From IMG/VR virus record IMGVR_UViG_3300016665_000082, positions 1 through 34,191 of that record: a DNA stretch of 34,191 nt, one strand, 5' to 3'. This document shows, in pieces, positions 2,930 to 34,191 of this stretch. Each line of letters starts with the position of its first letter. Position 1 is the stretch's first letter. The notes under the pieces were generated by a model. That model was given only the letters and a program-made list of their open reading frames with translations. It was not told the DNA's origin and searched no databases. A program made the translations under genes and the position numbers. Source of the stretch: a virus.

Positions 2930-2990
2930 ATAATTCCGCATATCTTCGCATCCTTCATTCGCAGATATTGTCTTTTGCATTGTGTATGAT

Positions 2991-3025
2991 CCCTGATCGT
3001 TTCCACGGTCGGGGAATTTTTTTTT
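2991..3025 (+). terminator. intrinsic terminator after the lysis cassette
   Basis: 9-bp stem ccctgatcg / cggtcgggg with loop tttcca, followed by aa + T9. Confidence 0.7.
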
Positions 3026-3043
3026 GTCATATCCCAAAATAAA

Positions 3044-3076
3044 TTTGTTTGATATTGTTTTGTTTTGTTATCTTTG
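3044..3076 (+). promoter_or_regulatory. Bacteroidota-type promoter (-33 TTTG, -7 TATCTTTG)
   Basis: TTTG at 3044-3047 and TAnnTTTG match at 3069-3076, 26 nt before ATG 3103. Confidence 0.55.
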
Positions 3077-3102
3077 TGGGACACAAGGCAAAAAACAAGG
3101 TT

Positions 3103-3300
3103 ATGAAAGCAATGATCAACACAATGACAAACGAACTGAAGGCCCTCAACATCAACCCGATCGGATCATACGCCACCCTTCCGGCAAAGATGGCCGAGGC
3201 GGTCGAGACCGTTAAAATGTTCGGTTACGCTGCATGGGATCAGGACAGCTGTATGGGCGCCAGTCTTAAGGCGATCGTTAAAAAATACGCCGAGGCATAA
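3103..3300 (+). CDS. hypothetical early protein (65 aa)
   Basis: Internal ATG of track ORF 3049..3300, chosen because the upstream part overlaps the promoter. Confidence 0.6.
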   Translation: MKAMINTMTNELKALNINPIGSYATLPAKMAEAVETVKMFGYAAWDQDSCMGASLKAIVKKYAEA

Positions 3301-3347
3301 AACGACACCGGGGCGCGACGGATACGCGCAAAATATTTGTTTCTTTT

Positions 3348-3378
3348 TTTGTTATTATTGTTTTCTTTTGTATATTTA
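3348..3378 (+). promoter_or_regulatory. Bacteroidota-type promoter (-33 TTTG, -7 TATATTTA)
   Basis: TTTG at 3348-3351. TATATTTA at 3371-3378 has one mismatch to TAnnTTTG and lies 17 nt before ATG 3396. Confidence 0.45.
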
Positions 3379-3395
3379 CCAAACAATCACACACA

Positions 3396-3608
3396 ATGCA
3401 ACCCACTACCGAAAAGACCTACACCCGCGAATTGATCGACGCCGCCCTGGCTGATCTGCAGTATCTCGTCCGCAACCTGAACGACGACGAACGTCATGAG
3501 GCCATGCGCGCCATGCGCCTCCGGATCGAGAACATCGTCACCTGCACCCGTCGCGATCTGGTCATCGACCTCCGAAATGCCATCTCCGACAAGGCCGCTA
3601 ATTTTTAA
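3396..3608 (+). CDS. hypothetical early protein (70 aa)
   Basis: ATG in an acacacaATGcaa context with its own promoter-like AT-rich upstream region. Confidence 0.65.
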   Translation: MQPTTEKTYTRELIDAALADLQYLVRNLNDDERHEAMRAMRLRIENIVTCTRRDLVIDLRNAISDKAANF

Positions 3609-3627
3609 CCATCAATAAATACACACA

Positions 3628-3900
3628 ATGCAACAGCTCACATCCGACACATTGCTCACCCTGCTCGGCCAGACCATCCGCTGGGAAGCTCCCGGCGCCC
3701 GCCGCACGTATTCCGGCGTCGCCCGTATCTCAGGCATCGTCGCCACGCATCAACCGATCTTATCCGAAACGATCGAGGGCGACATGCTATCATCCGCACA
3801 TATAAACGATAAGCTATTCGCTCCGCATAACGGGGTGGATCTCGGTATCGTTTACATGGAAGATTACGCAATGATCACCTTTGAAATCGTGAAGCCATGA
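3628..3900 (+). CDS. hypothetical early protein (90 aa)
   Basis: ATG in an acacacaATGcaa context. Confidence 0.65.
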   Translation: MQQLTSDTLLTLLGQTIRWEAPGARRTYSGVARISGIVATHQPILSETIEGDMLSSAHINDKLFAPHNGVDLGIVYMEDYAMITFEIVKP

Positions 3901-4022
3901 AAGCACGCTCCGCCGACACCCCATCGCACATCTGGTGTGCAACCGTCACGCTGGCCATAATGTTCGCACCGCCGATCCTGGAATGGATGGTGAACATCTT
4001 TGTAGATTTCATAACTCGATAA
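3897..4022 (+). CDS. possible 41-aa membrane peptide (below the ORF-track cutoff)
   Basis: ATGA overlap with the stop of 3628..3900. My translation is MKARSADTPSHIWCATVTLAIMFAPPILEWMVNIFVDFITR, with one hydrophobic segment. It fills an otherwise empty 132-nt gap. Confidence 0.3.
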   Translation: MKARSADTPSHIWCATVTLAIMFAPPILEWMVNIFVDFITR

Positions 4023-4032
4023 ATTCCACACT

Positions 4033-4233
4033 ATGCAGATTGATGAACGACTGGTAAAAAAATGGCGCGTCCTGTACGATCGGGGCGACGCCCAGGAACT
4101 GGCCACGAAGGCACAGGTACACAAAAACACGATCTTTAATGCGCTCCGCAAGGGCCGCACCGGGTCCCGCTTGTTCGCGGTGATGAAAGAACATTTTGAG
4201 GCGCGCGAGGCCGCCATCATCGGGAAACGATAA
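4033..4233 (+). CDS. small helix-turn-helix DNA-binding protein
   Basis: 66 aa. The segment AQELATKAQVHKNTIFNALRKG is HTH-like. Confidence 0.5.
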   Translation: MQIDERLVKKWRVLYDRGDAQELATKAQVHKNTIFNALRKGRTGSRLFAVMKEHFEAREAAIIGKR

Positions 4234-4247
4234 AAAAACAATACACA

Positions 4248-4973
4248 ATGAAAGCAAAAGACATTCAACGCCACGAAGATGATGTAGTGGCCCAGCTGAT
4301 CCTGGCTGGGGATCTATCGAAACTGAACGCGACCGATCGCGTGGCCTATTACCGGGGGTACTGCGAGCGTATCGGATTGGATCCCTTTACCAAGCCGTTC
4401 GATATCCTCCGCCTAAACGGTAAGGAAATATTGTATCTCACGCGCTCCGGCGCTCAGCAACTGAATAAGCTCCACGGCGTATCCCACCAGATTACCGCCC
4501 GCGAGGTTATCGCCGGGGAGGTGTACCAGGTCACCGCACGCGCCACACTCCCGGATGGCCGACATACCGAATCCATCGGCGCGGTATCCGTTGCCGGGAT
4601 GAAGGGGGAGAACTACTGCAACGCTATCATGAAGGCCGAAACAAAGGCCAAGAGGCGCTCAACGCTCGATCTGTTAGGTCTGGGTATTCTTTCCGAGGAA
4701 GAGGCCGTAGGCATGCCCGGCGGGGTAGCTGGTGCCATAACGACAACAGATGCGGAGGCCGCGCCCGTTAAACTTCCAACGCTATCGCTCGACGAACGCA
4801 TCCGCGTCACGTATGGCGCAAAGGAAGATGTGCTGGCGCTGATCGGGCAATGTTCGACGCTGGAACAGCTGAAAACATTGTACCAGGCTAATGAGGCGAT
4901 CGCGTCGGAGCCATCCATGCGCGAACAATTCCAGCACCGTAAACTCTCTATACATTACAATGCAAAACCATAA
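4248..4973 (+). CDS. single-strand annealing recombinase (Redbeta/RecT-superfamily-like)
   Basis: 241 aa. YCERIGLDPFTKPFDIL resembles lambda Bet QYGLNPWTKEIYAF. NAIMKAETKAKRRSTLDLLGLGILSEEEA resembles the conserved C-terminal core of these SSAPs. Confidence 0.55.
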   Translation: MKAKDIQRHEDDVVAQLILAGDLSKLNATDRVAYYRGYCERIGLDPFTKPFDILRLNGKEILYLTRSGAQQLNKLHGVSHQITAREVIAGEVYQVTARATLPDGRHTESIGAVSVAGMKGENYCNAIMKAETKAKRRSTLDLLGLGILSEEEAVGMPGGVAGAITTTDAEAAPVKLPTLSLDERIRVTYGAKEDVLALIGQCSTLEQLKTLYQANEAIASEPSMREQFQHRKLSIHYNAKP

Positions 4974-5334: not shown

Positions 5335-5678
5335 AGCCTACCGTATCTTCGCCGCTGGTGAAGGCGATCGACGATATCCGCGCGGACATTGCAAAATTGC
5401 CCATCGGAATCAAACGGAATATCCTGGAAACAATACTCGCAAAATTAGAACTCCATCACCGCGCGGACGAACAATATAGATTCCAGCTATATCGCCACGG
5501 GTTCGCGGACGGGATGAATCTCATTAAAGAAAAATACGCATATCATGGAAAAGCAACTGATCAGCCTAAACTTGAACCTATCGTTGGTAGACAAGGCGCG
5601 CCTGTACCCGGGGAAGAAAGGGAAATACCTATCTGCGGTCCTGCACCTGACGCCGACGGTGGATCAGTACGGCAATAA
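5331..5678 (+). CDS. hypothetical protein; 3' end doubtful
   Basis: GTG start in a GTGA overlap. The last ~45 codons (P/G/R-rich) overlap 5545..5889 out of frame by 134 nt. Confidence 0.4.
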   Translation: MKPTVSSPLVKAIDDIRADIAKLPIGIKRNILETILAKLELHHRADEQYRFQLYRHGFADGMNLIKEKYAYHGKATDQPKLEPIVGRQGAPVPGEEREIPICGPAPDADGGSVRQ

Positions 5679-5889
5679 CGGATTCATCGTGGAATCCGTA
5701 TCAAAAGAGGAACGCCAGGCCGGACAGCGCGGGACGATACTTGGAAACGCGAAGATCATTACTACCGGAGGAGATAGCGCCGCCATGGCACCGCAACAAG
5801 CGCCAGCGTACACGCCGCCCGCATCTTCCCAATCTTCCCAATCTTCCCAGGCGGGGACATACGACGCCGCGGATGATCTGCCTTTTTAA
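5545..5889 (+). CDS. SSB-like protein with acidic C-terminal tip
   Basis: 114 aa. Pro/Gln/Ser-rich linker (SSQSSQSSQ) and terminal DAADDLPF, the hallmark SSB tail (consensus DDDIPF). Adjacent to the annealing protein. Confidence 0.5.
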   Translation: MEKQLISLNLNLSLVDKARLYPGKKGKYLSAVLHLTPTVDQYGNNGFIVESVSKEERQAGQRGTILGNAKIITTGGDSAAMAPQQAPAYTPPASSQSSQSSQAGTYDAADDLPF

Positions 5890-5947: not shown

Positions 5948-6020
5948 GGCCGGGTAGCTCAGATGGTAGAGCGATGGACTGAAAATCCATGCGTCAGCGG
6001 TTCGATCCCGCTCCCGGCTA
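5948..6020 (+). tRNA. tRNA-Phe: tRNA-Phe (anticodon GAA)
   Basis: Hand-folded cloverleaf. Acceptor ggccggg/cccggct, D-arm gctc-agatggta-gagc, anticodon arm atgga-ctGAAaa-tccat, T-arm agcgg-ttcgatc-ccgct, discriminator A. CCA is not encoded. Confidence 0.9.
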
Positions 6021-6041
6021 CGGTGTATTTCATAGGTTAGC

Positions 6042-7930: not shown

Positions 7931-8527
7931 ATGCAAAAGGAGTACACAACAGATGAACGCGTAGCGATCACGCAAAAGATCGGCGAACGGATGAATGAAT
8001 GCAGAACGGCACACTGGCGAATATTATCAGCCGAAGGCGGGCCGAATGTTTACGACTGCGAGCGCCGGAATATGAACTACGTAACCGTCCGAATGGCGGC
8101 GTATATTGCCCGCGTAAATGCACATCTTTCCGGAATCAACATTTACAACCTATCGGAGAAAATCGGGCAGATCAAGGCCGCGACCCGGATGGCGCGCGTA
8201 TGGCATGCCATGACGCCCTATGCAATGATGGATGAAACGCTGGGGAAGAACTTGATGGATGATCTGGCGGAGGTGTTCGAGAATTACCGCGTCGCCGGAT
8301 GCGTCATACATCATGAAGGTATGGATACGACGCATGTACTCGTCACGGCGCACACATTCATCCCTGGCACATGCGAGGTAATGGACAGCGAACATGACGT
8401 TACCTTCACCGGGTACACGATCAAAAATAGGCCAGACATGTCGGATATATTTATGTCGGCGCTACACCATATCGCATGGACGGTAGATAGCGTAAATATT
8501 TTTGCATCCGAAAATTACGCGCAATGA
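7931..8527 (+). CDS. hypothetical protein (198 aa)
   Basis: ATG ORF, with ATGA overlap to the next gene at 8524. Confidence 0.65.
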   Translation: MQKEYTTDERVAITQKIGERMNECRTAHWRILSAEGGPNVYDCERRNMNYVTVRMAAYIARVNAHLSGINIYNLSEKIGQIKAATRMARVWHAMTPYAMMDETLGKNLMDDLAEVFENYRVAGCVIHHEGMDTTHVLVTAHTFIPGTCEVMDSEHDVTFTGYTIKNRPDMSDIFMSALHHIAWTVDSVNIFASENYAQ

Positions 8528-9555
8528 ACAACACATTTAAGGACATTGACTGGCGCGCGTTCAATGGGAAGCGCGTATTGATCTATGGCGGATTGGGATT
8601 TATTGGCCGCCATCTCACGCGGGAATCCGTCCGTCTTGGTGCAAAGGTTACGGTGGTGGATGATCTATCCAACAGCACGATAACGTTCGGCGGCGATGAT
8701 GATTTCCTCCGGGATATTGAACTCGTCCGGCGTTCGGTTAATTACCAGCCAGTCCACGAACACGCGCGAAATGCGGACATCATCATCTGGGCATGCTCGA
8801 CGCAGATCTCCCAGGTCCCGCACGATCCATCCTCGGACCTAATGACGAACGCAGGGTCATTTGCGTACATGCTGAACTTGGTCGCTTCGATGAAAGATCG
8901 GAAACAGCGCCGGATCATTTATTGCGGGTCCGTTTCGGTGTACGGGCAGCCTTCAACCGGATGGATATATGACGACAACTCATTCCGCCCTGGCACTCAT
9001 TACGGCATTTCAAAACTGGCCGGGGAATATTACGCCAGATTGTATTCCAATGCTCCGTATCATCTCCAGATCACGGTGATCAGATATTCAAACGTTTACG
9101 GCCCGGGCCAGACGCCAACGGGCGGGAGGATATGCGGCGTGATTGGGAAATATATCCATGAATATCTTAATCACGGAGAGCTGGAAATCTACGGCGAAGG
9201 GTCAGATGTACGGGATTACACCTACATCGACGACGTGGTCACGTTTACGCTGGGATGCTCAATCCTACTTTGCGCGATCGGTCGATCCTTTAATTTTGGA
9301 ACGGGCGTCGGTACGGATGTCCACGATCTGATCCGGATCATCACAGATGAGGAAAAGCGGGATCCGTTGTTGTCATACGAAACGCCGCGTCAGATCGACA
9401 CGGTATCGCGCCGGGTCGTGGATCCGACGGCGGTGTATGTATTGACGAGTTGGGAAAAGTTCATCCCGCTGGATCACGGTATCCGATGGACGATGGGATG
9501 GTATGTCGATTTCCTTAAAACGATCGAGGATGAACACGACTACGATAACGAATAG
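8524..9555 (+). CDS. NAD-dependent nucleotide-sugar epimerase/dehydratase (extended SDR)
   Basis: 343 aa. Rossmann motif YGGLGFIGRHL (GxxGxxG), catalytic CGSVSVYG ... YGISKLAGE (S...YxxxK). Confidence 0.85.
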   Translation: MNNTFKDIDWRAFNGKRVLIYGGLGFIGRHLTRESVRLGAKVTVVDDLSNSTITFGGDDDFLRDIELVRRSVNYQPVHEHARNADIIIWACSTQISQVPHDPSSDLMTNAGSFAYMLNLVASMKDRKQRRIIYCGSVSVYGQPSTGWIYDDNSFRPGTHYGISKLAGEYYARLYSNAPYHLQITVIRYSNVYGPGQTPTGGRICGVIGKYIHEYLNHGELEIYGEGSDVRDYTYIDDVVTFTLGCSILLCAIGRSFNFGTGVGTDVHDLIRIITDEEKRDPLLSYETPRQIDTVSRRVVDPTAVYVLTSWEKFIPLDHGIRWTMGWYVDFLKTIEDEHDYDNE

Positions 9556-9574
9556 ACTGGCTGTGGTTGGATGT

Positions 9575-9916
9575 ATGTTCGACGGGGCGGTCGGGGTGAC
9601 ATACGACGCCCTGATCCGCTCCACGATCGACGTCGATTTCATCGTCCGGATGGATAGCGTCCTCGGTTGTTACATGGCGAAATATCAATACCACACATCG
9701 CGCAAAGAGATACCACGGATCGAGGATATCCCGCATGGCGACAAGTCGTATTTTTGGAATGAGGCAAAAAAATACACGGATGAACAGGACCGCAGGATCA
9801 AGGCCGCGAAGGTCATCTATCTCATCGACCAGCTTTGCGCCGTCGGCTGGCGAACTGACGAAGTACGCCATCGCGCATCTGACACATCTCGGATTCCTGG
9901 TATGGCGTCAAAATAA
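9575..9916 (+). CDS. hypothetical protein; possibly the N-terminal part of a frameshifted VRR-NUC gene
   Basis: First ATG after the stop of the SDR gene, within track ORF 9503..9916. The last ~22 codons (WRTDEVRHRASDTSRIPGMASK) look non-protein-like. Confidence 0.45.
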   Translation: MFDGAVGVTYDALIRSTIDVDFIVRMDSVLGCYMAKYQYHTSRKEIPRIEDIPHGDKSYFWNEAKKYTDEQDRRIKAAKVIYLIDQLCAVGWRTDEVRHRASDTSRIPGMASK

Positions 9917-10169
9917 CCACGCCACCCGTGGCCGGAAGTTTATCGGGATGCGCGGCATGCCTGATATTATCGGGTACGGGATGGATGGCCGGGCGGTGTA
10001 CTGCGAGGTGAAATCGGAAGGGGATCGACTATCGGATGATCAGATCGCGTTCATGGATCGGGCGACGGTTAATGGATGCCAGACATGGATCTGCAAGGTC
10101 GGAGAGCATGGCGGCGCCTACTTAACTACATGGGAGTTTCATCGGAAACAAAATAGCACAAAGGATTGA
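9735..10169 (+). CDS. VRR-NUC (PD-(D/E)xK) nuclease domain protein; 5' boundary uncertain
   Basis: From about 9852: ELTKYAIAHLTHLGFLVWRQNN...GMPDIIGY...VYCEVKSEGDRLSDDQIAFMDRATVNG, the VRR-NUC layout. The only ATGs (9735, 9759, 9780) lie 70-115 nt upstream, in an R/S-rich stretch overlapping 9575..9916. Confidence 0.6.
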   Translation: MATSRIFGMRQKNTRMNRTAGSRPRRSSISSTSFAPSAGELTKYAIAHLTHLGFLVWRQNNHATRGRKFIGMRGMPDIIGYGMDGRAVYCEVKSEGDRLSDDQIAFMDRATVNGCQTWICKVGEHGGAYLTTWEFHRKQNSTKD

Positions 10170-10843
10170 CGCGTTCCGAGATCATCGCCGATATGTATGG
10201 GAATAAGGACGTCGCCGACGCCATCGGGAAGATGGAACCGGAGGCGCTCCGCGATGATCTGCGACAGGAGATATTTCAGGTGTTGTGTGAACTTCCGGAG
10301 GATCGCCTCCTGGAGATGCACCGGGAAGGATGGCTAAAGTGGTTCATCGTCCGGACGATGCTAAACATGATCAAGTCCGATCGATCTACATTTTGGTACA
10401 AATTCCGGCGCCAGTTTGTTGAAGTGTCTGATGAGATGGGACGGGAGCCAGAGGCGGCGGAAGATGACACAAGGGATCAGGGACGCGTCCGGGACGGGGT
10501 GAACGCCCTCCATTGGTACGAAGCGAAACTGATCGAGATCTACGCCGCAAACGGGCAGAACATCGCGAAGATCAGCCGGGAGACGGGAATACCATATCGG
10601 TCACTATTTAAGACGATCAAAAAAGTGAAGGATAAACTTAAAAAGGAAGTACGCGAGGAACGGGCGCCGCCGTCCGTGGCAACGGTCCGACTGTCGCTGG
10701 ATGTGACGATCGAGGTATCCCCATCCGGGGCGGATACGATTCTCGACACAATCGAAACGATGGATGACGCGACGCGGATGATGTTGTCCAGCGCATGCCG
10801 ATTGATACACTACAAAGGGTTCACCATAAAGGAAACGAAATGA
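10166..10843 (+). CDS. sigma-70-family-like transcription factor (region 2 and region 4 HTH)
   Basis: TTG 10166 (or ATG 10193). DLRQEIFQVLCEL...WLKWFIVRTMLNMIKSDRSTFWYKFRR is region-2-like. LHWYEAKLIEIYAANGQNIAKISRETGIPYRSLFKTIKKVKDKLKKE is region-4.2-like. Confidence 0.5.
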   Translation: MTRSEIIADMYGNKDVADAIGKMEPEALRDDLRQEIFQVLCELPEDRLLEMHREGWLKWFIVRTMLNMIKSDRSTFWYKFRRQFVEVSDEMGREPEAAEDDTRDQGRVRDGVNALHWYEAKLIEIYAANGQNIAKISRETGIPYRSLFKTIKKVKDKLKKEVREERAPPSVATVRLSLDVTIEVSPSGADTILDTIETMDDATRMMLSSACRLIHYKGFTIKETK

Positions 10844-10943
10844 CATATTTAGAGGCGCTAATTTATAGCTTGCTTGTTGTGGCATTTTACTCGCTTCAGG
10901 TAGTATGGGAAATAATTGTAAAGGACAATAAAAATGATCATAA

Positions 10944-11198
10944 ATGATCCAGATCATCATCACCGCCGCATCGTTCACCGTCTGGTGGGCCGTCCTATCC
11001 GGGATCCCACAACGCCTCCGCCTTCGGAAGCCTTTTGATTGCGTAATATGCCTGCCCGTATATCTTGCGCCCGTGCTTTATTTCGTACCTCATCCCTATC
11101 TGGACATCATCACCGTGGCATCAGTCGCGCCCGTCGCGGCGTGGCTGCTGGTCGGAATTTTACAATTCATCAAACAGAATCTAAATGGCAACTATTAA
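10944..11198 (+). CDS. small integral membrane protein (about 3 TM)
   Basis: 84 aa with hydrophobic segments IIITAASFTVWWAVL, ICLPVYLAPVLYFV and VASVAPVAAWLLVGIL. Confidence 0.5.
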   Translation: MIQIIITAASFTVWWAVLSGIPQRLRLRKPFDCVICLPVYLAPVLYFVPHPYLDIITVASVAPVAAWLLVGILQFIKQNLNGNY

Positions 11199-11580
11199 CG
11201 AAACGGATCTCGCGTACCTCCGAAATCACAAAGTATATTTTGAGCAGGCGAAGATGAACTTCCTGCACGGGTTCAATGCGCATATCATGGACACGTTCCA
11301 CCAGATATTCCAGCGCTACCTTCAGCCGGGGTACGTCCTTACGCCGTGGTGTTCATCCTGCGTCCTGGACATGGTGCAGCGCCTCGGAGATTGGTATGAA
11401 ACGATCGAGGATGAACTGGCGACGATCCAGGCCGCCGGGGCGGATAACGTGGCCGCGTTCACCTTCCCGGACGATCTCGATAAGATCGAACCCGTGCAAC
11501 AATCCGACACGATGACGCTGGATGGCGGTATCGTCCTGACGGCAACGAAACGGAAGCCACGAACAAAAAAACAGGGATGA
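11185..11580 (+). CDS. hypothetical protein (131 aa)
   Basis: ATG ORF, with ATGA overlap to the GT-B gene at 11577. Confidence 0.6.
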   Translation: MATINETDLAYLRNHKVYFEQAKMNFLHGFNAHIMDTFHQIFQRYLQPGYVLTPWCSSCVLDMVQRLGDWYETIEDELATIQAAGADNVAAFTFPDDLDKIEPVQQSDTMTLDGGIVLTATKRKPRTKKQG

Positions 11581-12629
11581 GGATACTCGCAGTCACACAA
11601 CCGAACAGCGGCGTAGGATATCACCGGATGATGCTACCGCTCCGCCATCTGCCCGGGGTATCCGTGCTGTTCACGGATTTCATCAATGATGAAGTCCTGG
11701 AGCGCGGATTCGACATCGTCACGTTTAACAGGTTCATTCCGGGCGTCGAACTATCCGACCTGATCGCCTTCCGGAAAAAATACGGGTTCAAGATGGTGCT
11801 GGATCTCGACGATTACTGGATCCTCGACTCGTGGCATATCCTCGCGCAGAACTTTCCGTCCCAGGTCATCGTCGATCACATCCGGGCGGCGGACCTGGTG
11901 ACGGTGACGCATGATCGTCTCCTGAAGGAAGTGCGTCCGCTCAACTCGTGCTGGGAGACGCTTGCCAACGCGCTCCCGTTCGATGAAGGACAATTCCACG
12001 CGGGGCGGGTGGATGTGGACGCGATGAATGACAGCATGGAGCAACCCGTGGCCGATGGCGCGGTCCGGTTCCTGTACGCCGGCGGGATTACACACCGGAA
12101 GGATATCGAACTAATGGCGCACCCTATGCGGGCCCTGGCCGATGATGACAAGTACCGCGAGCGGATCCATCTGATCATGGCCGGGTACGATGACAGCAAC
12201 CCGCAAACGATCCCGACATGGAACGGAATGGTAAGGGATTACACGGCCGCGCACCGTATGAACTTTCATCTTCGCGCTCCGCTACCGCCGGATGCCTACA
12301 TGGCCTTTTACGCGGAAGCGGATGTGGCATTCGCGCCGCTGGTGGAGAGCAAGTTCAACACGATGAAATCGAACATCAAAGCGCTGGAGGCCGGATGCAA
12401 GTACATCCCGCTGATCGCGTCGGATGTACATCCGTACCAGCCTATTCCGCCAGTGTTGAAAGTCGAAGCGCGCCGGGACTGGGGGAAGTTTATCCGGCGG
12501 ATGGTAGATAGCAAATGGCAACGGGAGGATGCCGGGAAGGCGCTCGGGGAGTACGTGCGCCGGGAGTATCATCTGACGAATTGGAACAAGAAACGGAAAC
12601 AACTTTACGAATGGATCATCACGAAATGA
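11577..12629 (+). CDS. glycosyltransferase, GT-B fold (GT1/GT4-like)
   Basis: 350 aa. MRILAVTQ... N-terminus, AADLVTVTHDRL, RFLYAGGITHRKD, and the C-terminal YAEADVAFAPLVESKFNTMKSNIKALEAGCKYIPLIAS, an E-x7-E-like donor-binding region. Confidence 0.65.
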   Translation: MRILAVTQPNSGVGYHRMMLPLRHLPGVSVLFTDFINDEVLERGFDIVTFNRFIPGVELSDLIAFRKKYGFKMVLDLDDYWILDSWHILAQNFPSQVIVDHIRAADLVTVTHDRLLKEVRPLNSCWETLANALPFDEGQFHAGRVDVDAMNDSMEQPVADGAVRFLYAGGITHRKDIELMAHPMRALADDDKYRERIHLIMAGYDDSNPQTIPTWNGMVRDYTAAHRMNFHLRAPLPPDAYMAFYAEADVAFAPLVESKFNTMKSNIKALEAGCKYIPLIASDVHPYQPIPPVLKVEARRDWGKFIRRMVDSKWQREDAGKALGEYVRREYHLTNWNKKRKQLYEWIITK

Positions 12630-13255
12630 AACCGCGCATCTCACGTCCCGCCGTGCTCATCATGGCGTACCGACGGCATGACATAACAGCGCGGACGCTG
12701 GCCGCCAACCTCAACACCGCCGGGATGGATTTCGGTCTATTCGTCGGCGATCATCGCGGGATCTGCAGGAACTCGAATATAATGCTATGGCGCGCGATGG
12801 CAGAAGGGTACGACGCCTTTTGCATCATGGGCAACGACATAACGGAACCGTATGGATGGCTGAAGGCCCGCGTCGATTTCGCCAATGGTCGCGGGGATTG
12901 TGGCGGGGTATCCATCGGCATCGACTGGATGACATCGACGCCGAAGGAGGACACCGTGATAGGGAATATCCTATGGCCGCGCGACGTCGTGGAAAAGGTC
13001 GGGGCCTGGGATGAGCGCCTCGATCCACATGGCCCGGTGGATCTGGATTACTGCAACCGGGCGAATAAGGCCGGATACAAAAATTGGTACCTGCCTAACA
13101 TGATGGCCAACCATCACTGGGGCCATGACGGGAATTTATACGGGTACGATAAGCAGGCCGTAATCAAAGAAAAATGGGACTTGTATTGCCACCAGGTCGG
13201 GAACCCGGAGTACTACATTCCATTCGAGGACATGTCGAAATATTATGAGCAATGA
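12626..13255 (+). CDS. glycosyltransferase, GT-A fold (GT2-like)
   Basis: Internal ATG (ATGA overlap) of track ORF 12515..13255. PAVLIMAYRRHD..., CIMGNDITEP, WPRDVVEKVGAWDERLDPHGPVDLDYCNRANKAGY. Confidence 0.55.
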   Translation: MKPRISRPAVLIMAYRRHDITARTLAANLNTAGMDFGLFVGDHRGICRNSNIMLWRAMAEGYDAFCIMGNDITEPYGWLKARVDFANGRGDCGGVSIGIDWMTSTPKEDTVIGNILWPRDVVEKVGAWDERLDPHGPVDLDYCNRANKAGYKNWYLPNMMANHHWGHDGNLYGYDKQAVIKEKWDLYCHQVGNPEYYIPFEDMSKYYEQ

Positions 13256-14406
13256 ACATCCAAGAGGTCAAAATATCGACGATCAAGTCGAACCCGAACA
13301 ATCCCAGGCTGATTAAGGATGACAAGTTCGCCAAGCTGGTCCAGTCCATCCGCGATTTCCCGGAGATGCTCCGCCTGCGACCGATCGTGGTCAATGATGA
13401 CATGATCGTGCTGGGCGGAAATATGCGACTAAAGGCATGCAAGGAGGCCGGGTTAAAGGTCGTTCCGATCATCAAGGCGTCCGACCTTACCGACGACCAA
13501 CAGCGAGAGTTCATCATCAAGGATAACGTCGGGTTCGGCGAATGGGACTGGGAGATGCTCGCGAATGAATGGGACGACGCGAAGCTGGCGGACTGGGGAC
13601 TCGATCTTCCGGACATGTCGGAAAAGGTACTGGAAGCGGAGGAGGATGATTTCGACGTCCCGGATGGCGGCATTGAAACCGACATCGTGCCGGGCGACCT
13701 GTTCGAGATCGGGCCGCATCGCTTGTTATGCGGCAATAGTACCGACGCGGACGCGGTGACGCGGTTGATGAATGGCGAGAAGGCGGATATGGTATTCACG
13801 GATCCGCCGTATGGCATAAACTACAAATCAAATAAAAGAAAGGATCAATTTGAATTTATTAAAAATGACGATGTCATAAATTGTGATTTTCTGCCAATTA
13901 TACCAGTAAAAAACGATATCGCATTTTATGTATGGACAAGGTGGGACGTTTATAGTAAATGGGTCGAATTGATACAAAAAACGTATCAAGTTTCAAATTG
14001 TATTGTATGGGCAAAACAAGCAGGCGGCCTCGGTGATCTCGAGTCATTTTGGAACCAACATGAATTTGCAATATACGCTGTCAATGGTAAGGTAAAATTG
14101 CGAGGAAAGAGGCAAGGCAATTTATGGGAGACAACGGATCACAGGAGCAAAGATTACGTCCATCCGACGCAGAAACCAATAGAATTAGCGGCAAGAGCAA
14201 TAGAAGCAACATCGGACATTCGTAATATTATTGTTGATGTATTCCTCGGCTCCGGTTCCACAATGGTCGCCGCGCATCAGCTCGGGCGCAAATGTTACGG
14301 GATGGAGCTGGATCCGAAATATTGCCAGGTTATTGTTGATCGCATGCGGAAACTGGATCCAGGTATTGAGATTAAACGAAACGGGCAACCGTATAAAATA
14401 GACTGA
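13252..14406 (+). CDS. ParB-like nuclease domain fused to a beta-class N6A/N4C DNA methyltransferase
   Basis: N-terminal ParB box IKSNPNNPRLI...LRPIVVN...VLGGNMRLKA. Motif IV is TDPPYG and motif I is HPTQKP...DVFLGSGSTMVAA. The order IV then I defines the beta class. Confidence 0.9.
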   Translation: MNIQEVKISTIKSNPNNPRLIKDDKFAKLVQSIRDFPEMLRLRPIVVNDDMIVLGGNMRLKACKEAGLKVVPIIKASDLTDDQQREFIIKDNVGFGEWDWEMLANEWDDAKLADWGLDLPDMSEKVLEAEEDDFDVPDGGIETDIVPGDLFEIGPHRLLCGNSTDADAVTRLMNGEKADMVFTDPPYGINYKSNKRKDQFEFIKNDDVINCDFLPIIPVKNDIAFYVWTRWDVYSKWVELIQKTYQVSNCIVWAKQAGGLGDLESFWNQHEFAIYAVNGKVKLRGKRQGNLWETTDHRSKDYVHPTQKPIELAARAIEATSDIRNIIVDVFLGSGSTMVAAHQLGRKCYGMELDPKYCQVIVDRMRKLDPGIEIKRNGQPYKID

Positions 14407-14833: not shown

Positions 14834-15115
14834 ATGTACAAGACACCTGAACGCCTCGCGTTCGACAAAGAACTGGGCGCCGCCTTAAAACGCGCCCGCA
14901 TCATGGCCGGGCTGACGCGCAACAACGTCGCCATCGATACAGATCTAAATCCATCATCCATCGACCGCATCGAGCGCGGCCAGTCATCCGCCAACACGTT
15001 CGACGTACTGCGGATCATGGCGTCCATCGGGGCGGATCCCGCGGCATTATTGCGAGATGCGCTCGAAGCCGGGGAGGCAAGATTTGCGGCTGGTAAAATA
15101 CGTGGGGCGAAATGA
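14834..15115 (+). CDS. XRE-family helix-turn-helix regulator (C-protein-like)
   Basis: Internal ATG (attacacaATG) of track ORF 14549..15115. LKRARIMAGLTRNNVAIDTDLNPSSIDRIERGQ is the Cro/CI-type HTH. ATGA overlap to the methyltransferase at 15112. Confidence 0.75.
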   Translation: MYKTPERLAFDKELGAALKRARIMAGLTRNNVAIDTDLNPSSIDRIERGQSSANTFDVLRIMASIGADPAALLRDALEAGEARFAAGKIRGAK

Positions 15116-15957
15116 TATACCGAGATCACTTCCAGAACTACAAAGGATACGCCATCCCGAAGGCCCAGCTGATCATTGCGGATATCCCGTATAACCTCGG
15201 CAATAACGCGTACGCATCGAATCCGGCATGGTATAAAGATGGCGACAATCAGAACGGGGAGAGCGAACTGGCTGGTAAGTCGTTTTTTGACACCGACGAG
15301 GATTTTCGCCCGGCGGAGTTCATGCACTTTTGCAGTACGATGTTGAAGTCCGAAAAAAAACAGATCAAGGGCGAAGGTGAAGGCAGGCAAAAAAGCTCAG
15401 CGCCGTGCATGATTGTTTTTTGTGCGTTCGATCAACAGATGTATCTTATCGAGCTGGCGAAGCGGTACGGATTGAATAACTATATCAATCTCGTTTTCCG
15501 GAAAAACTTTTCCGCCCAGGTCCTGAAAGCAAATATGAAGGTCGTCGGGAATTGCGAGTATGCGCTGATCCTGTACCGGGACCGCCTCCCGAAGTTTAAT
15601 AATGGCGGGAAGATGGTATTTAATTGCATGGACTGGCCTAGAGATAATGAACACGAAAAGATCCATCCTACTCAAAAACCCGTCGAGTTATTAAAGCGCC
15701 TGATCGAATTATTTACGGATCCCGGTGACGTGGTGATCGACCCGGTCGCCGGAAGCGGATCGACGCTGATCGCCGCCGAACGTACGGGGCGGAAGTCGTA
15801 CGGGTTCGAGATCAAAAAGGAATTTTGGATGAAGGCTAACGCATGGCTGGCGGAGGAAAAACAAACAAAGGAGGATATCAAAAACTTCGGATTCGCGAAA
15901 AGCAAGATCGAAAAGGATCAGCCGACATTGTGGACCGTTAAAACCGACGCACAATGA
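15112..15957 (+). CDS. beta-class N6A/N4C DNA methyltransferase (second copy, unrelated middle)
   Basis: Motif IV variant IADIPYN. Motif I is HPTQKPVELLKRL...VIDPVAGSGSTLIAA. Confidence 0.9.
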   Translation: MIYRDHFQNYKGYAIPKAQLIIADIPYNLGNNAYASNPAWYKDGDNQNGESELAGKSFFDTDEDFRPAEFMHFCSTMLKSEKKQIKGEGEGRQKSSAPCMIVFCAFDQQMYLIELAKRYGLNNYINLVFRKNFSAQVLKANMKVVGNCEYALILYRDRLPKFNNGGKMVFNCMDWPRDNEHEKIHPTQKPVELLKRLIELFTDPGDVVIDPVAGSGSTLIAAERTGRKSYGFEIKKEFWMKANAWLAEEKQTKEDIKNFGFAKSKIEKDQPTLWTVKTDAQ

Positions 15958-33731: not shown

Positions 33732-34191
33732 AACAACTTATATTTATTCTCATCGCCATCATTGGCGTATCGCAGGCGCAAACTATCCAATATATCGGCG
33801 CTCCGACGACGACGGTAATATCCCGCGGCAACTTCCGCACGGATAGTATCTTTTATCTTCCGAAGCGGACGAAGCTACCGACGGATACCGCGGCACTTCG
33901 ATATCAGATTTCGGATAGTTCGCTGTATGCCTGGACGGGATCGCAATGGCGCAAGGTCGGGGCGGATGCGGATACGCTCGTTTATTCAACGCGCGCATGG
34001 AGACAAAAGGGTGACGATTCGCTGGCCTCGCGTATCAACTTAAAAGTAAATATAAGCGACACCTCCTCCATGCTAACCAACTACATTCGTCACGCAGGCT
34101 ACGGTCTGACAAAGTCGGGTCAATCGTTCCTCGTTGACACGCTAAACATCTCGACCCGTGCATGGCGGCAGAAGGGATTGGACAGCCTTGC
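33728..34191 (+). CDS. tail fibre-like protein, 5' part (continues at 1..1064 across the circular junction)
   Basis: ATG 33728 in an ATGA overlap. No stop before the window end, which is why it is absent from the ORF track. N-terminus MKQLIFILIAIIGVSQAQ is signal-peptide-like. Duplicated motif STRAWRQKG(D/L)DSLA. Confidence 0.65.
   Translation, partial: MKQLIFILIAIIGVSQAQTIQYIGAPTTTVISRGNFRTDSIFYLPKRTKLPTDTAALRYQISDSSLYAWTGSQWRKVGADADTLVYSTRAWRQKGDDSLASRINLKVNISDTSSMLTNYIRHAGYGLTKSGQSFLVDTLNISTRAWRQKGLDSL
34170..34191. repeat. 22-nt exact copy of 1..22
   Basis: See 1..22. Confidence 0.9.

Follow-up and report, generated by a model that had tools for sequence, protein, structure and literature searches.

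The virus record IMGVR_UViG_3300016665_000082 of IMG/VR spans 34,191 nucleotides, hereafter the window. Between positions 7,931 and 13,255 it carries genes for a nucleotide-sugar epimerase-like enzyme and two glycosyltransferases (GTs) among several small genes, and these run directly into genes for DNA methyltransferases. A first-pass annotation of the letters had taken the region for one translationally coupled string chained to the methyltransferases. Comparison with related phages instead resolves it into elements that are inherited separately. The genes concerned, all on the + strand, are:

7931..8527, + strand: g7931, an orphan 198-amino-acid protein and obligate upstream partner of the SDR gene
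8524..9555, + strand: SDR, an extended-SDR nucleotide-sugar 4-epimerase-like enzyme
10166..10843, + strand: sigma-like helix-turn-helix (HTH) protein, weakly sigma-70/ECF-like, the most persistent neighbour of GT-B
10944..11198, + strand: small membrane protein with three hydrophobic segments in its translation (3-TM, for transmembrane), overlapping the next gene by 14 nt
11185..11580, + strand: g11185, a small protein whose WCxxC core is invariant and whose C-terminal tail is basic
11577..12629, + strand: GT-B, a GT4-type GT-B glycosyltransferase, near-core gene of the phage family
12626..13255, + strand: GT-A, a GT2-type GT-A glycosyltransferase, optional cassette gene
13252..14406, + strand: fusion of a ParB N-domain with an N6/N4 DNA methyltransferase (PF02195 and PF01555)
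15112..15957, + strand: second N6/N4 DNA methyltransferase (PF01555, 5e-27), a window-specific insertion

Enzymes of the glycosylation region

Profile and structure searches place all three enzymes in sugar-active families, which makes the remodelling and transfer of an activated sugar by this phage plausible, as first suggested. The SDR translation contains GGLGFIGRHL, GSVSVYG and YGISK, that is, the GxxGxxG Rossmann motif and the Ser/Thr...YxxxK catalytic residues, and these align to the solved UDP-glucose 4-epimerase 4ZRM. Pfam Epimerase (PF01370, 3e-35) and 4ZRM itself (4e-32 over residues 17-327, nearly full length) agree with the motifs, as does phrog_540 (1e-42). The next-best solved matches are the UDP-N-acetylhexosamine (HexNAc) 4-epimerases WbgU/WbpP (~1e-22). 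NCBIfam equivalog scores all lie far under their cut-offs (galE, for example, 84 bits against 262), so no substrate can be assigned.

The GT-B/GT4-like layout first noted at 11577..12629 is borne out by an AlphaFold model of a two-Rossmann-domain GT-B fold (pLDDT 92.8). Foldseek ranks the GT4 enzymes GlgM, MshA and BshA highest (E 1e-11 to 1e-13, TM-score ~0.7), and further PDB neighbours include HepE, PimB', WaaG and TarM. GT-B matches phrog_7162 at 3e-52 and scores 25.6 bits on PF13692, short of the cut-off of 27; many homologs bear a precomputed PF13692 annotation. The protein has no TM segment. Its fold also matches uncharacterised viral GTs; given these and the generic GT4 matches, we set the fold aside as uninformative about the acceptor.

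GT-A is weak as a single sequence, matching PF13641 at 0.028 and phrog_2456 at 1e-4, with its Pfam score under the cut-off. A ten-member family profile confirms the GT2-like reading, matching the GT2 structures heparosan synthase (1e-6) and SpsA (4e-5). Arg17, Asn70-Asp71, Asp139 and His164 are invariant in the family, which has a DxD-type metal/nucleotide motif and one member above the PF00535 cut-off.

The small genes are less familiar. In line with the first-pass annotation, which recognised no family for them, no Pfam, PHROG or NCBIfam family matches the ORFs at 7931-8527, 9575-9916, 10944-11198 and 11185-11580. The first of these, g7931, has just 29 homologs, none below 50% identity, and lies directly upstream of SDR in every context examined (loci L107-L114). 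Its profile, run against 1.84 billion representative proteins, retrieved its own family only. The AlphaFold model (pLDDT 79.7) has four long helices and a three-strand sheet, and a Foldseek search against the PDB returned nothing below E=0.18. We considered g7931 as a cryptic 2-oxoglutarate/Fe dioxygenase and rejected the idea: its 'HHE' stretch is unconserved, there is no conserved HxD...H motif, the model is not a double-stranded beta-helix, and the protein has no structural or remote sequence relatives.

Two further genes had been described as interleaved with the block. The VRR-NUC assignment holds (PF08774, 3e-8). Its longest ORF, 9735-10169, shares 182 nt with the ORF before it; in relatives the called gene has only 69-73 amino acids, so the true start is probably near 9948, giving a minimal VRR-NUC core. 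The sigma-like assignment is weaker. TIGR02937 (0.004) and phrog_1740 (0.003) are marginal, one of 15 family members matches Sigma70_r4_2, no PDB match was found, and family-level searches failed to strengthen the call. A search of intergenic sequences for promoters or shared motifs, aimed at placing the GT genes in an early or a late regulon, gave no convincing motif.

Inheritance of the three elements

The window belongs to a family of ~34-kb Bacteroidota (Chitinophagaceae-type) phages, from which we surveyed ~190 related loci. Two sets were compared, 85 loci recruited through GT-B and 77 recruited independently through the terminase. GT-B has 236 homologs, at least 559 IMG/VR stretches encode a relative, and many of the homolog-bearing contigs are 32-37 kb long. 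The gene order recurs on contigs of Chitinophagaceae and Sphingobacteriaceae metagenome-assembled genomes and in integrated prophages of Chitinophaga cymbidii, Ferruginibacter and Mucilaginibacter; the hosts are therefore Bacteroidota, and part of the family is temperate. Megablast against deposited phages found no nucleotide-level relative of the window.

Across these loci the region proves to be a mosaic whose three elements are inherited independently: a near-core block around GT-B, a cassette of GT-A with tailoring enzymes, and an island headed by ParB. We hold this with high confidence because the SDR/g7931 pair is limited to one subclade, each GT occurs alone, the methyltransferases are insertions or deletions between close relatives, and GT-A and ParB are distributed independently.

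The near-core block keeps the order sigma-like gene, small TM protein, g11185 and GT-B across the family, with occurrences of 77, 66, 80 and 81 among the 85 loci, and 32 of the 36 terminase-anchored loci have GT-B. g11185 lies directly upstream of GT-B in 62 of 79 loci, 51 of them with a 4-nt overlap, and is usually translationally coupled to it. Even in rearranged prophages g11185 adjoins GT-B, as does the sigma-like gene in prophages only ~30% identical. In alignment A3 of g11185, T53, C56 and C59 are invariant, and the linker is variable, either acidic or Pro/Gln-rich. Fourteen of 24 diverse members end in an AT-hook-like K-K-R-G-R-P-K-K tail, which is degenerate in the window (KRKPRTKKQG). 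The idea that g11185 is an obligate partner of GT-B is weakened by loci L171 and L177, where it persists without GT-B.

GT-A, by contrast with this near-core block, is optional. The stretch between GT-B and the small terminase subunit forms a variable island, and among 64 complete islands GT-A is found in 36. In 35 of these a sugar-tailoring partner accompanies it, 17 times a hexapeptide acyltransferase and 18 times GT_PLOD together with a Methyltransf_24 enzyme. In the window's subclade the partner is instead g7931 plus SDR, ~2 kb upstream. This pair, scored by blastp, appeared in none of the 85 loci of the first survey, and in the subclade (L107, L111, L112, L109, L114) it always occurs together and with the window-type GT-A. 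Locus L002, whose GT-B is 69% identical, has neither SDR, g7931 nor GT-A. Since the pair co-occurs with the window-type GT-A only in this subclade, we take the real functional link to be that SDR, with its orphan partner g7931, serves GT-A.

Members of the same GT-A family also directly precede GT-B in phapecoctavirus nieznany (4e-9) and in Pseudomonas prophages (~1e-8), and either GT can occur without the other in the family. A model in which GT-B primes a glycan that GT-A extends is weakened by locus L192, which has GT-A with an acyltransferase and no GT-B. In one prophage-like region, of Paraburkholderia sp. J67 (L102 6323-8113), a 597-amino-acid protein consisting almost entirely of collagen-like G-X-Y repeats is encoded ~1 kb upstream of a homologous GT-A/GT-B pair, and is a candidate protein acceptor.

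The contexts of more distant SDR homologs are mixed: they include the same phage family, a bacterial polysaccharide locus and an unrelated phage that encodes a dNMP kinase and many GTs. One family member with a g7931-like and SDR pair (L114, SDR 49% identical) encodes a C5 DNA methyltransferase upstream (PF00145, L114 1341-2411); its contig ends within GT-B. The unrelated phage (L115 288-10223) combines MazG, a dNMP kinase (PF21448), four GTs, a methyltransferase and a hexapeptide transferase next to SSB and DNA polymerase A genes, with an SDR 36% identical to that of the window; it looks like a candidate pre-replicative DNA hypermodification cluster.

The third element contains both methyltransferases. 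A nucleotide alignment of the window to its three closest relatives (82-91% identity) is collinear through g7931, SDR, GT-B, GT-A and the ParB N-domain. Similarity then breaks at ~13590-13610 and resumes at 14406, an interval that corresponds to the methyltransferase half of the ParB fusion. A second break, 15115-15953, corresponds to the second methyltransferase, which is missing in L111 and L107. L111 and L112 have a bare 150-amino-acid ParB and no second methyltransferase, and L107 has a different ParB C-terminus plus a TAGT gene (L107 15980-16747). GT-A and ParB are present independently of each other in the 64 complete islands (19/19/17/9). Both methyltransferases thus belong to a separate ParB-headed DNA-modification island, inherited apart from the glycosylation genes.

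The proposed coupled string does not survive this comparison. The ATGA overlaps at 11577, 12626 and 13252 are real, and there is another at 8524. However, nine further junctions share the 4-nt overlap, 13 of 42 adjacent-gene junctions in all, so it is a general style of this genome and marks no special link between the glycosylation genes. Because the methyltransferases are insertions or deletions relative to close relatives, it is through a recent, local and accidental cassette insertion that the chain ends in a DNA-modifying enzyme. In the comparison with L111 and L107, the second methyltransferase stands out as an exact 0.84-kb insert. An ATGA stop-start overlap flanks it on each side, so cassettes seem to swap precisely where stop and start codons overlap.

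The island itself combines a conserved head with changing cargo. The ParB N-domain is 60-86% identical between loci, and the cargo behind it can be a fused N6/N4 methyltransferase, TET/JBP either by itself or joined by TAGT, TAGT alone, Mom, a DpdA-like TGT with QueD, QueE and FolE, a P-loop ATPase-GNAT fusion (phrog_11143), or nothing. Islands of this swap-in kind occur in the window and in L002, L006, L007, L015, L029, L030, L050, L057, L063, L065, L066, L071, L082, L107, L177 and L192. ParB-dependent T-dioxygenases have been described before (PMC13229309). A conserved ParB N-domain heading interchangeable cargos suggests that ParB may be a general loader or activator of post-replicative DNA modifiers, beyond those T-dioxygenases.

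The ends of the window share the 22-nt overlap AGAAGGGATTGGACAGCCTTGC (positions 1-22 and 34170-34191), which shows the genome assembly to be complete and circular, or circularly permuted. The ORF at 9-1064, with a tail-fibre-like PHROG match, probably continues from the window end. A tRNA-Phe (GAA) lies at 5948-6021, between an SSB-like gene (5545-5889, C-terminal DDLPF) and replication genes. The genome is tightly packed in a single gene orientation except at 2930-4247, where 1.3 kb holds no + strand ORF of at least 100 amino acids. The sole ORF of that length mostly within it is on the minus strand (3864-4274, 136 amino acids, no family). This stretch could be a regulatory or lysogeny-related region, or an origin.

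Possible acceptors of the glycan

The first-pass annotation named three possible targets: the phage's own DNA, virion proteins and host envelope glycans. Each keeps some weight, unequally, and the case for DNA is weakened. In the DNA scenario the GT4 enzyme, the GT2 enzyme or both would glycosylate replicated phage DNA, perhaps under guidance from ParB and the AT-hook-like g11185, on an acceptor base made by an unrecognised enzyme or by new chemistry independent of TET and ThyA. The setting is suggestive. The genes adjoin a ParB-headed island whose cargo in relatives includes methyltransferases, TET with TAGT, Mom and 7-deazaguanine genes. GT-A/GT-B glycosyltransferases with an optional epimerase near ParB and terminase are part of the make-up of a DNA-glycosylation cluster, and epimerase-coupled GT clusters do exist. 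Described post-replicative sugar-hypermodification clusters combine a C5-methyltransferase/5mYOX pair with a GT-A or GT-B enzyme, sometimes an epimerase and often ParB (PMC8256090; bioRxiv 10.1101/2023.12.21.572611; PMC13229309). The window shares with them GT-A, GT-B, epimerase, ParB and a position immediately before the terminase. The GT row of phapecoctavirus lies within the replication module, and most relatives carry the KKRGRPKK tail on g11185. The fold does not exclude DNA either, since validated DNA GT-B enzymes include the GT4/BshA-like GT53.

What the window lacks is a recognisable source of the acceptor. Known phage DNA glycosylation requires a base hydroxyl supplied by 5mYOX/TET-JBP or a ThyA homolog (PMC8256090; bioRxiv 10.1101/2023.12.21.572611; PMC13326640; PMC13229309). 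Pfam scans of the early- and replication-region ORFs found no TET/JBP, ThyA-like enzyme, C5-methyltransferase or dNMP kinase, and in contrast to the described clusters no 5mYOX was detected in this complete genome. We also built hidden Markov models (HMMs) of TET, TAGT and c17 from relatives' proteins and ran them on six-frame ORFs of the window at E<=10. None of the three genes was found in any frame, the best TET score being E 0.09.

Nor are the GTs inherited with a base-modifying enzyme across relatives. TET occurs in 6 of the first 110 loci (~5%), against GT-B in ~90% of family members. Genuine ParB-TAGT-TET cassettes occupy the same island in L002, L015, L030, L057 and L177; TET loci mostly bring their own TAGT in this way, and L177 has TET with GT-B absent, so that TET and GT-B are inherited independently, again unlike the described clusters. 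GT presence is likewise independent of ParB, and g11185 persists without GT-B. Three loci point the other way. L007 has TET without a dedicated TAGT and only resident GTs, and in L107 (15980-16747) and L065 (3304-4074) a TAGT gene matching phrog_842 follows ParB with no TET/JBP by family-specific HMM, which hints at an unseen source of acceptor.

The T-even hydroxymethylcytosine (hmC) glucosyltransferases (T4 alpha-GT and beta-GT, T2/T6 beta-glucosyl-HMC-alpha-GT) are likewise phage GT-B enzymes that use a UDP-sugar, and the TAGT-like genes of relatives match phrog_842, annotated as beta-glucosyl-HMC-alpha-glucosyltransferase. T-even phages, however, make hmC before replication through dCMP hydroxymethylase and dNMP kinase, neither of which is present in the window. 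The 50 best structural matches listed for the window GT-B, which extend to E=3.7e-8, do not include T4 beta-GT; the matches of GT53 to T4 beta-GT are themselves weaker than the cutoff of that list. Homologous GT-A and GT-B pairs (GT-B 31-33% identical, GT-A by HMM at 4e-9 to 1e-8) occur in Phapecoctavirus, phi92-like E. coli myoviruses and Pseudomonas prophages, in uncharacterised rows without g11185, the sigma-like neighbour or the SDR/g7931 pair. The Phapecoctavirus and phi92-like groups, to which matching phage records with GT-B homologs belong, are reported to be exceptionally restriction-sensitive despite their glycosylation genes (PMC8594841). Survey authors, moreover, rate GT contigs without 5mYOX or ThyS as less likely DNA modifiers (bioRxiv 10.1101/2023.12.21.572611).

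A complete genome without a recognisable hydroxyl-making enzyme, the separate inheritance of TET and GT-B, and the restriction sensitivity of homolog-bearing phages together argue that the acceptor is not a TET- or ThyA-derived DNA base, and we regard DNA glycosylation of any kind as unlikely. A narrower version, which we think distinctly improbable, would have the near-core GT4 act with the AT-hook-like CxxC protein g11185, and possibly ParB, on phage DNA or a DNA-bound protein without needing a TET/JBP or ThyA-type hydroxylase, while GT2 and tailoring cassettes diversify the glycan. The unseen acceptor of such a route would also explain TAGT without TET in L107 and L065.

Host envelope remodelling is unlikely as well. 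Here the target would be a lipid-linked or polymeric host glycan (lipopolysaccharide, capsule or some other surface polysaccharide), modified by the GTs in infected or lysogenic cells so as to prevent superinfection or keep progeny from being lost on cell debris. Structural neighbours suit such a role: those of GT-B (WaaG, PimB', TarM, PglA, MshA) use lipid-linked, polymeric or small-molecule acceptors, and those of GT-A are polysaccharide synthases. The conserved small 3-TM protein of the same block and the integrated prophages of the family (Chitinophaga, Ferruginibacter, Mucilaginibacter) would fit as well. Lysogenic-conversion systems such as GtrABC and TarP offer a parallel, being phage-borne GT2 enzymes that alter glycans. 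They differ from the window, where Pfam detects no GtrA-, GtrB- or GT-C-type membrane enzyme among the region's proteins, GT-B itself lacks a TM segment, and no flippase or polymerase gene was found. The genes are also embedded in, and coupled to, same-strand lytic-cycle genes between the replication and packaging modules, and form no autonomous moron.

Still less probable, in our view very unlikely, is a soluble small molecule or a non-virion protein as target, for example a host defence signal to be inactivated or a regulator tied to the sigma-like protein and g11185. Its appeal lies in the closest structural matches of GT-B, since MshA, BshA, GlgM, TreT and OtsA use small-molecule acceptors, and in the neighbourhood of GT-B with the HTH/sigma-like gene and g11185, which survives rearrangements. 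The literature searched gives no precedent, however, and a variable second GT with tailoring enzymes suggests that a glycan on a surface or polymer is diversified rather than one small-molecule product made.

The explanation that best accounts for the region as a whole, which we put forward tentatively, is that it is a mosaic directing a lineage-variable short glycan onto a non-DNA acceptor, most likely a virion protein. By homology, SDR would 4-epimerise a host UDP-hexose or UDP-HexNAc. The GT2 enzyme, of an inverting family, and the GT4 enzyme, of a retaining family, would each transfer a sugar during lytic growth, and gene content suggests that the resulting short glycan would vary in composition between lineages. 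The weakest step is the last, in which the glycan would be placed on a phage virion protein, as in glycosylated mycobacteriophage virions; our confidence in this acceptor is low.

Our preference for a virion protein has three grounds. Across widely differing phages the GT genes accompany the morphogenesis module; in unrelated Pseudomonas prophages the homologous GT-A/GT-B pair lies immediately before terminase (packaging) or tail genes. The genes sit within lytic operons, not in an autonomous conversion moron. The swap-in tailoring enzymes, finally, resemble mycobacteriophage sets of GTs and methyltransferases. In mycobacteriophages, as Freeman and colleagues reportedly described in 2023, GTs from the non-structural region and a tailoring O-methyltransferase yield lineage-variable virion glycans, and the relatives' GT2, GT_PLOD and Methyltransf_24 sets look analogous.

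Several observations weigh against a virion protein. The mycobacteriophage parallel is an analogy only: the host phylum differs, no sequence homology was detected among the GT-B matches listed, and the 140 phage records that match GT-B include no Mycobacterium phage in their listed organism groups. We found no Ser/Thr-rich or collagen-like acceptor tracts in virion proteins of the family and saw in them no C-terminal acceptor tails. Within the family each GT proves dispensable on its own, as would suit any sort of accessory role. Two features lean towards DNA: the AT-hook-like tail of g11185, the frequent partner of GT-B, and the position of the glycosylation genes against a DNA-modification hotspot. 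The fold is compatible with DNA too, since the validated DNA glycosyltransferase GT53 is also GT4/BshA-like.

Meaning for phage glycosylation

The enzymes of the window are ordinary and its type of cassette is already catalogued (PHROGs 540, 2456 and 7162); it is not a new system, and 'undescribed' was too strong a word for it. Orphan GT cassettes are widespread, as PHROG 7162 attests, and ~65% of 25,000 mined GT contigs lack a base-modifying partner (bioRxiv 10.1101/2023.12.21.572611), the class that the window resembles. The literature searches turned up no functional study of this GT pair. The apparent link to DNA methylation is adjacency to an insertion hotspot, and the ParB-headed island with its interchangeable DNA-modification cargos is the more interesting by-product of the analysis.

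Thousands of phage contigs carry GTs with no visible DNA-modifying partner. The family described here offers a clean comparative system for asking what such enzymes glycosylate, with a near-core GT4 and interchangeable GT2 and tailoring cassettes that adjoin a separate ParB-headed swap island. If the acceptor is DNA, its chemistry would be independent of TET and ThyA. If virion protein is the acceptor, glycan coats would be a feature not of actinobacteriophages alone but also of abundant environmental phages of Bacteroidota.

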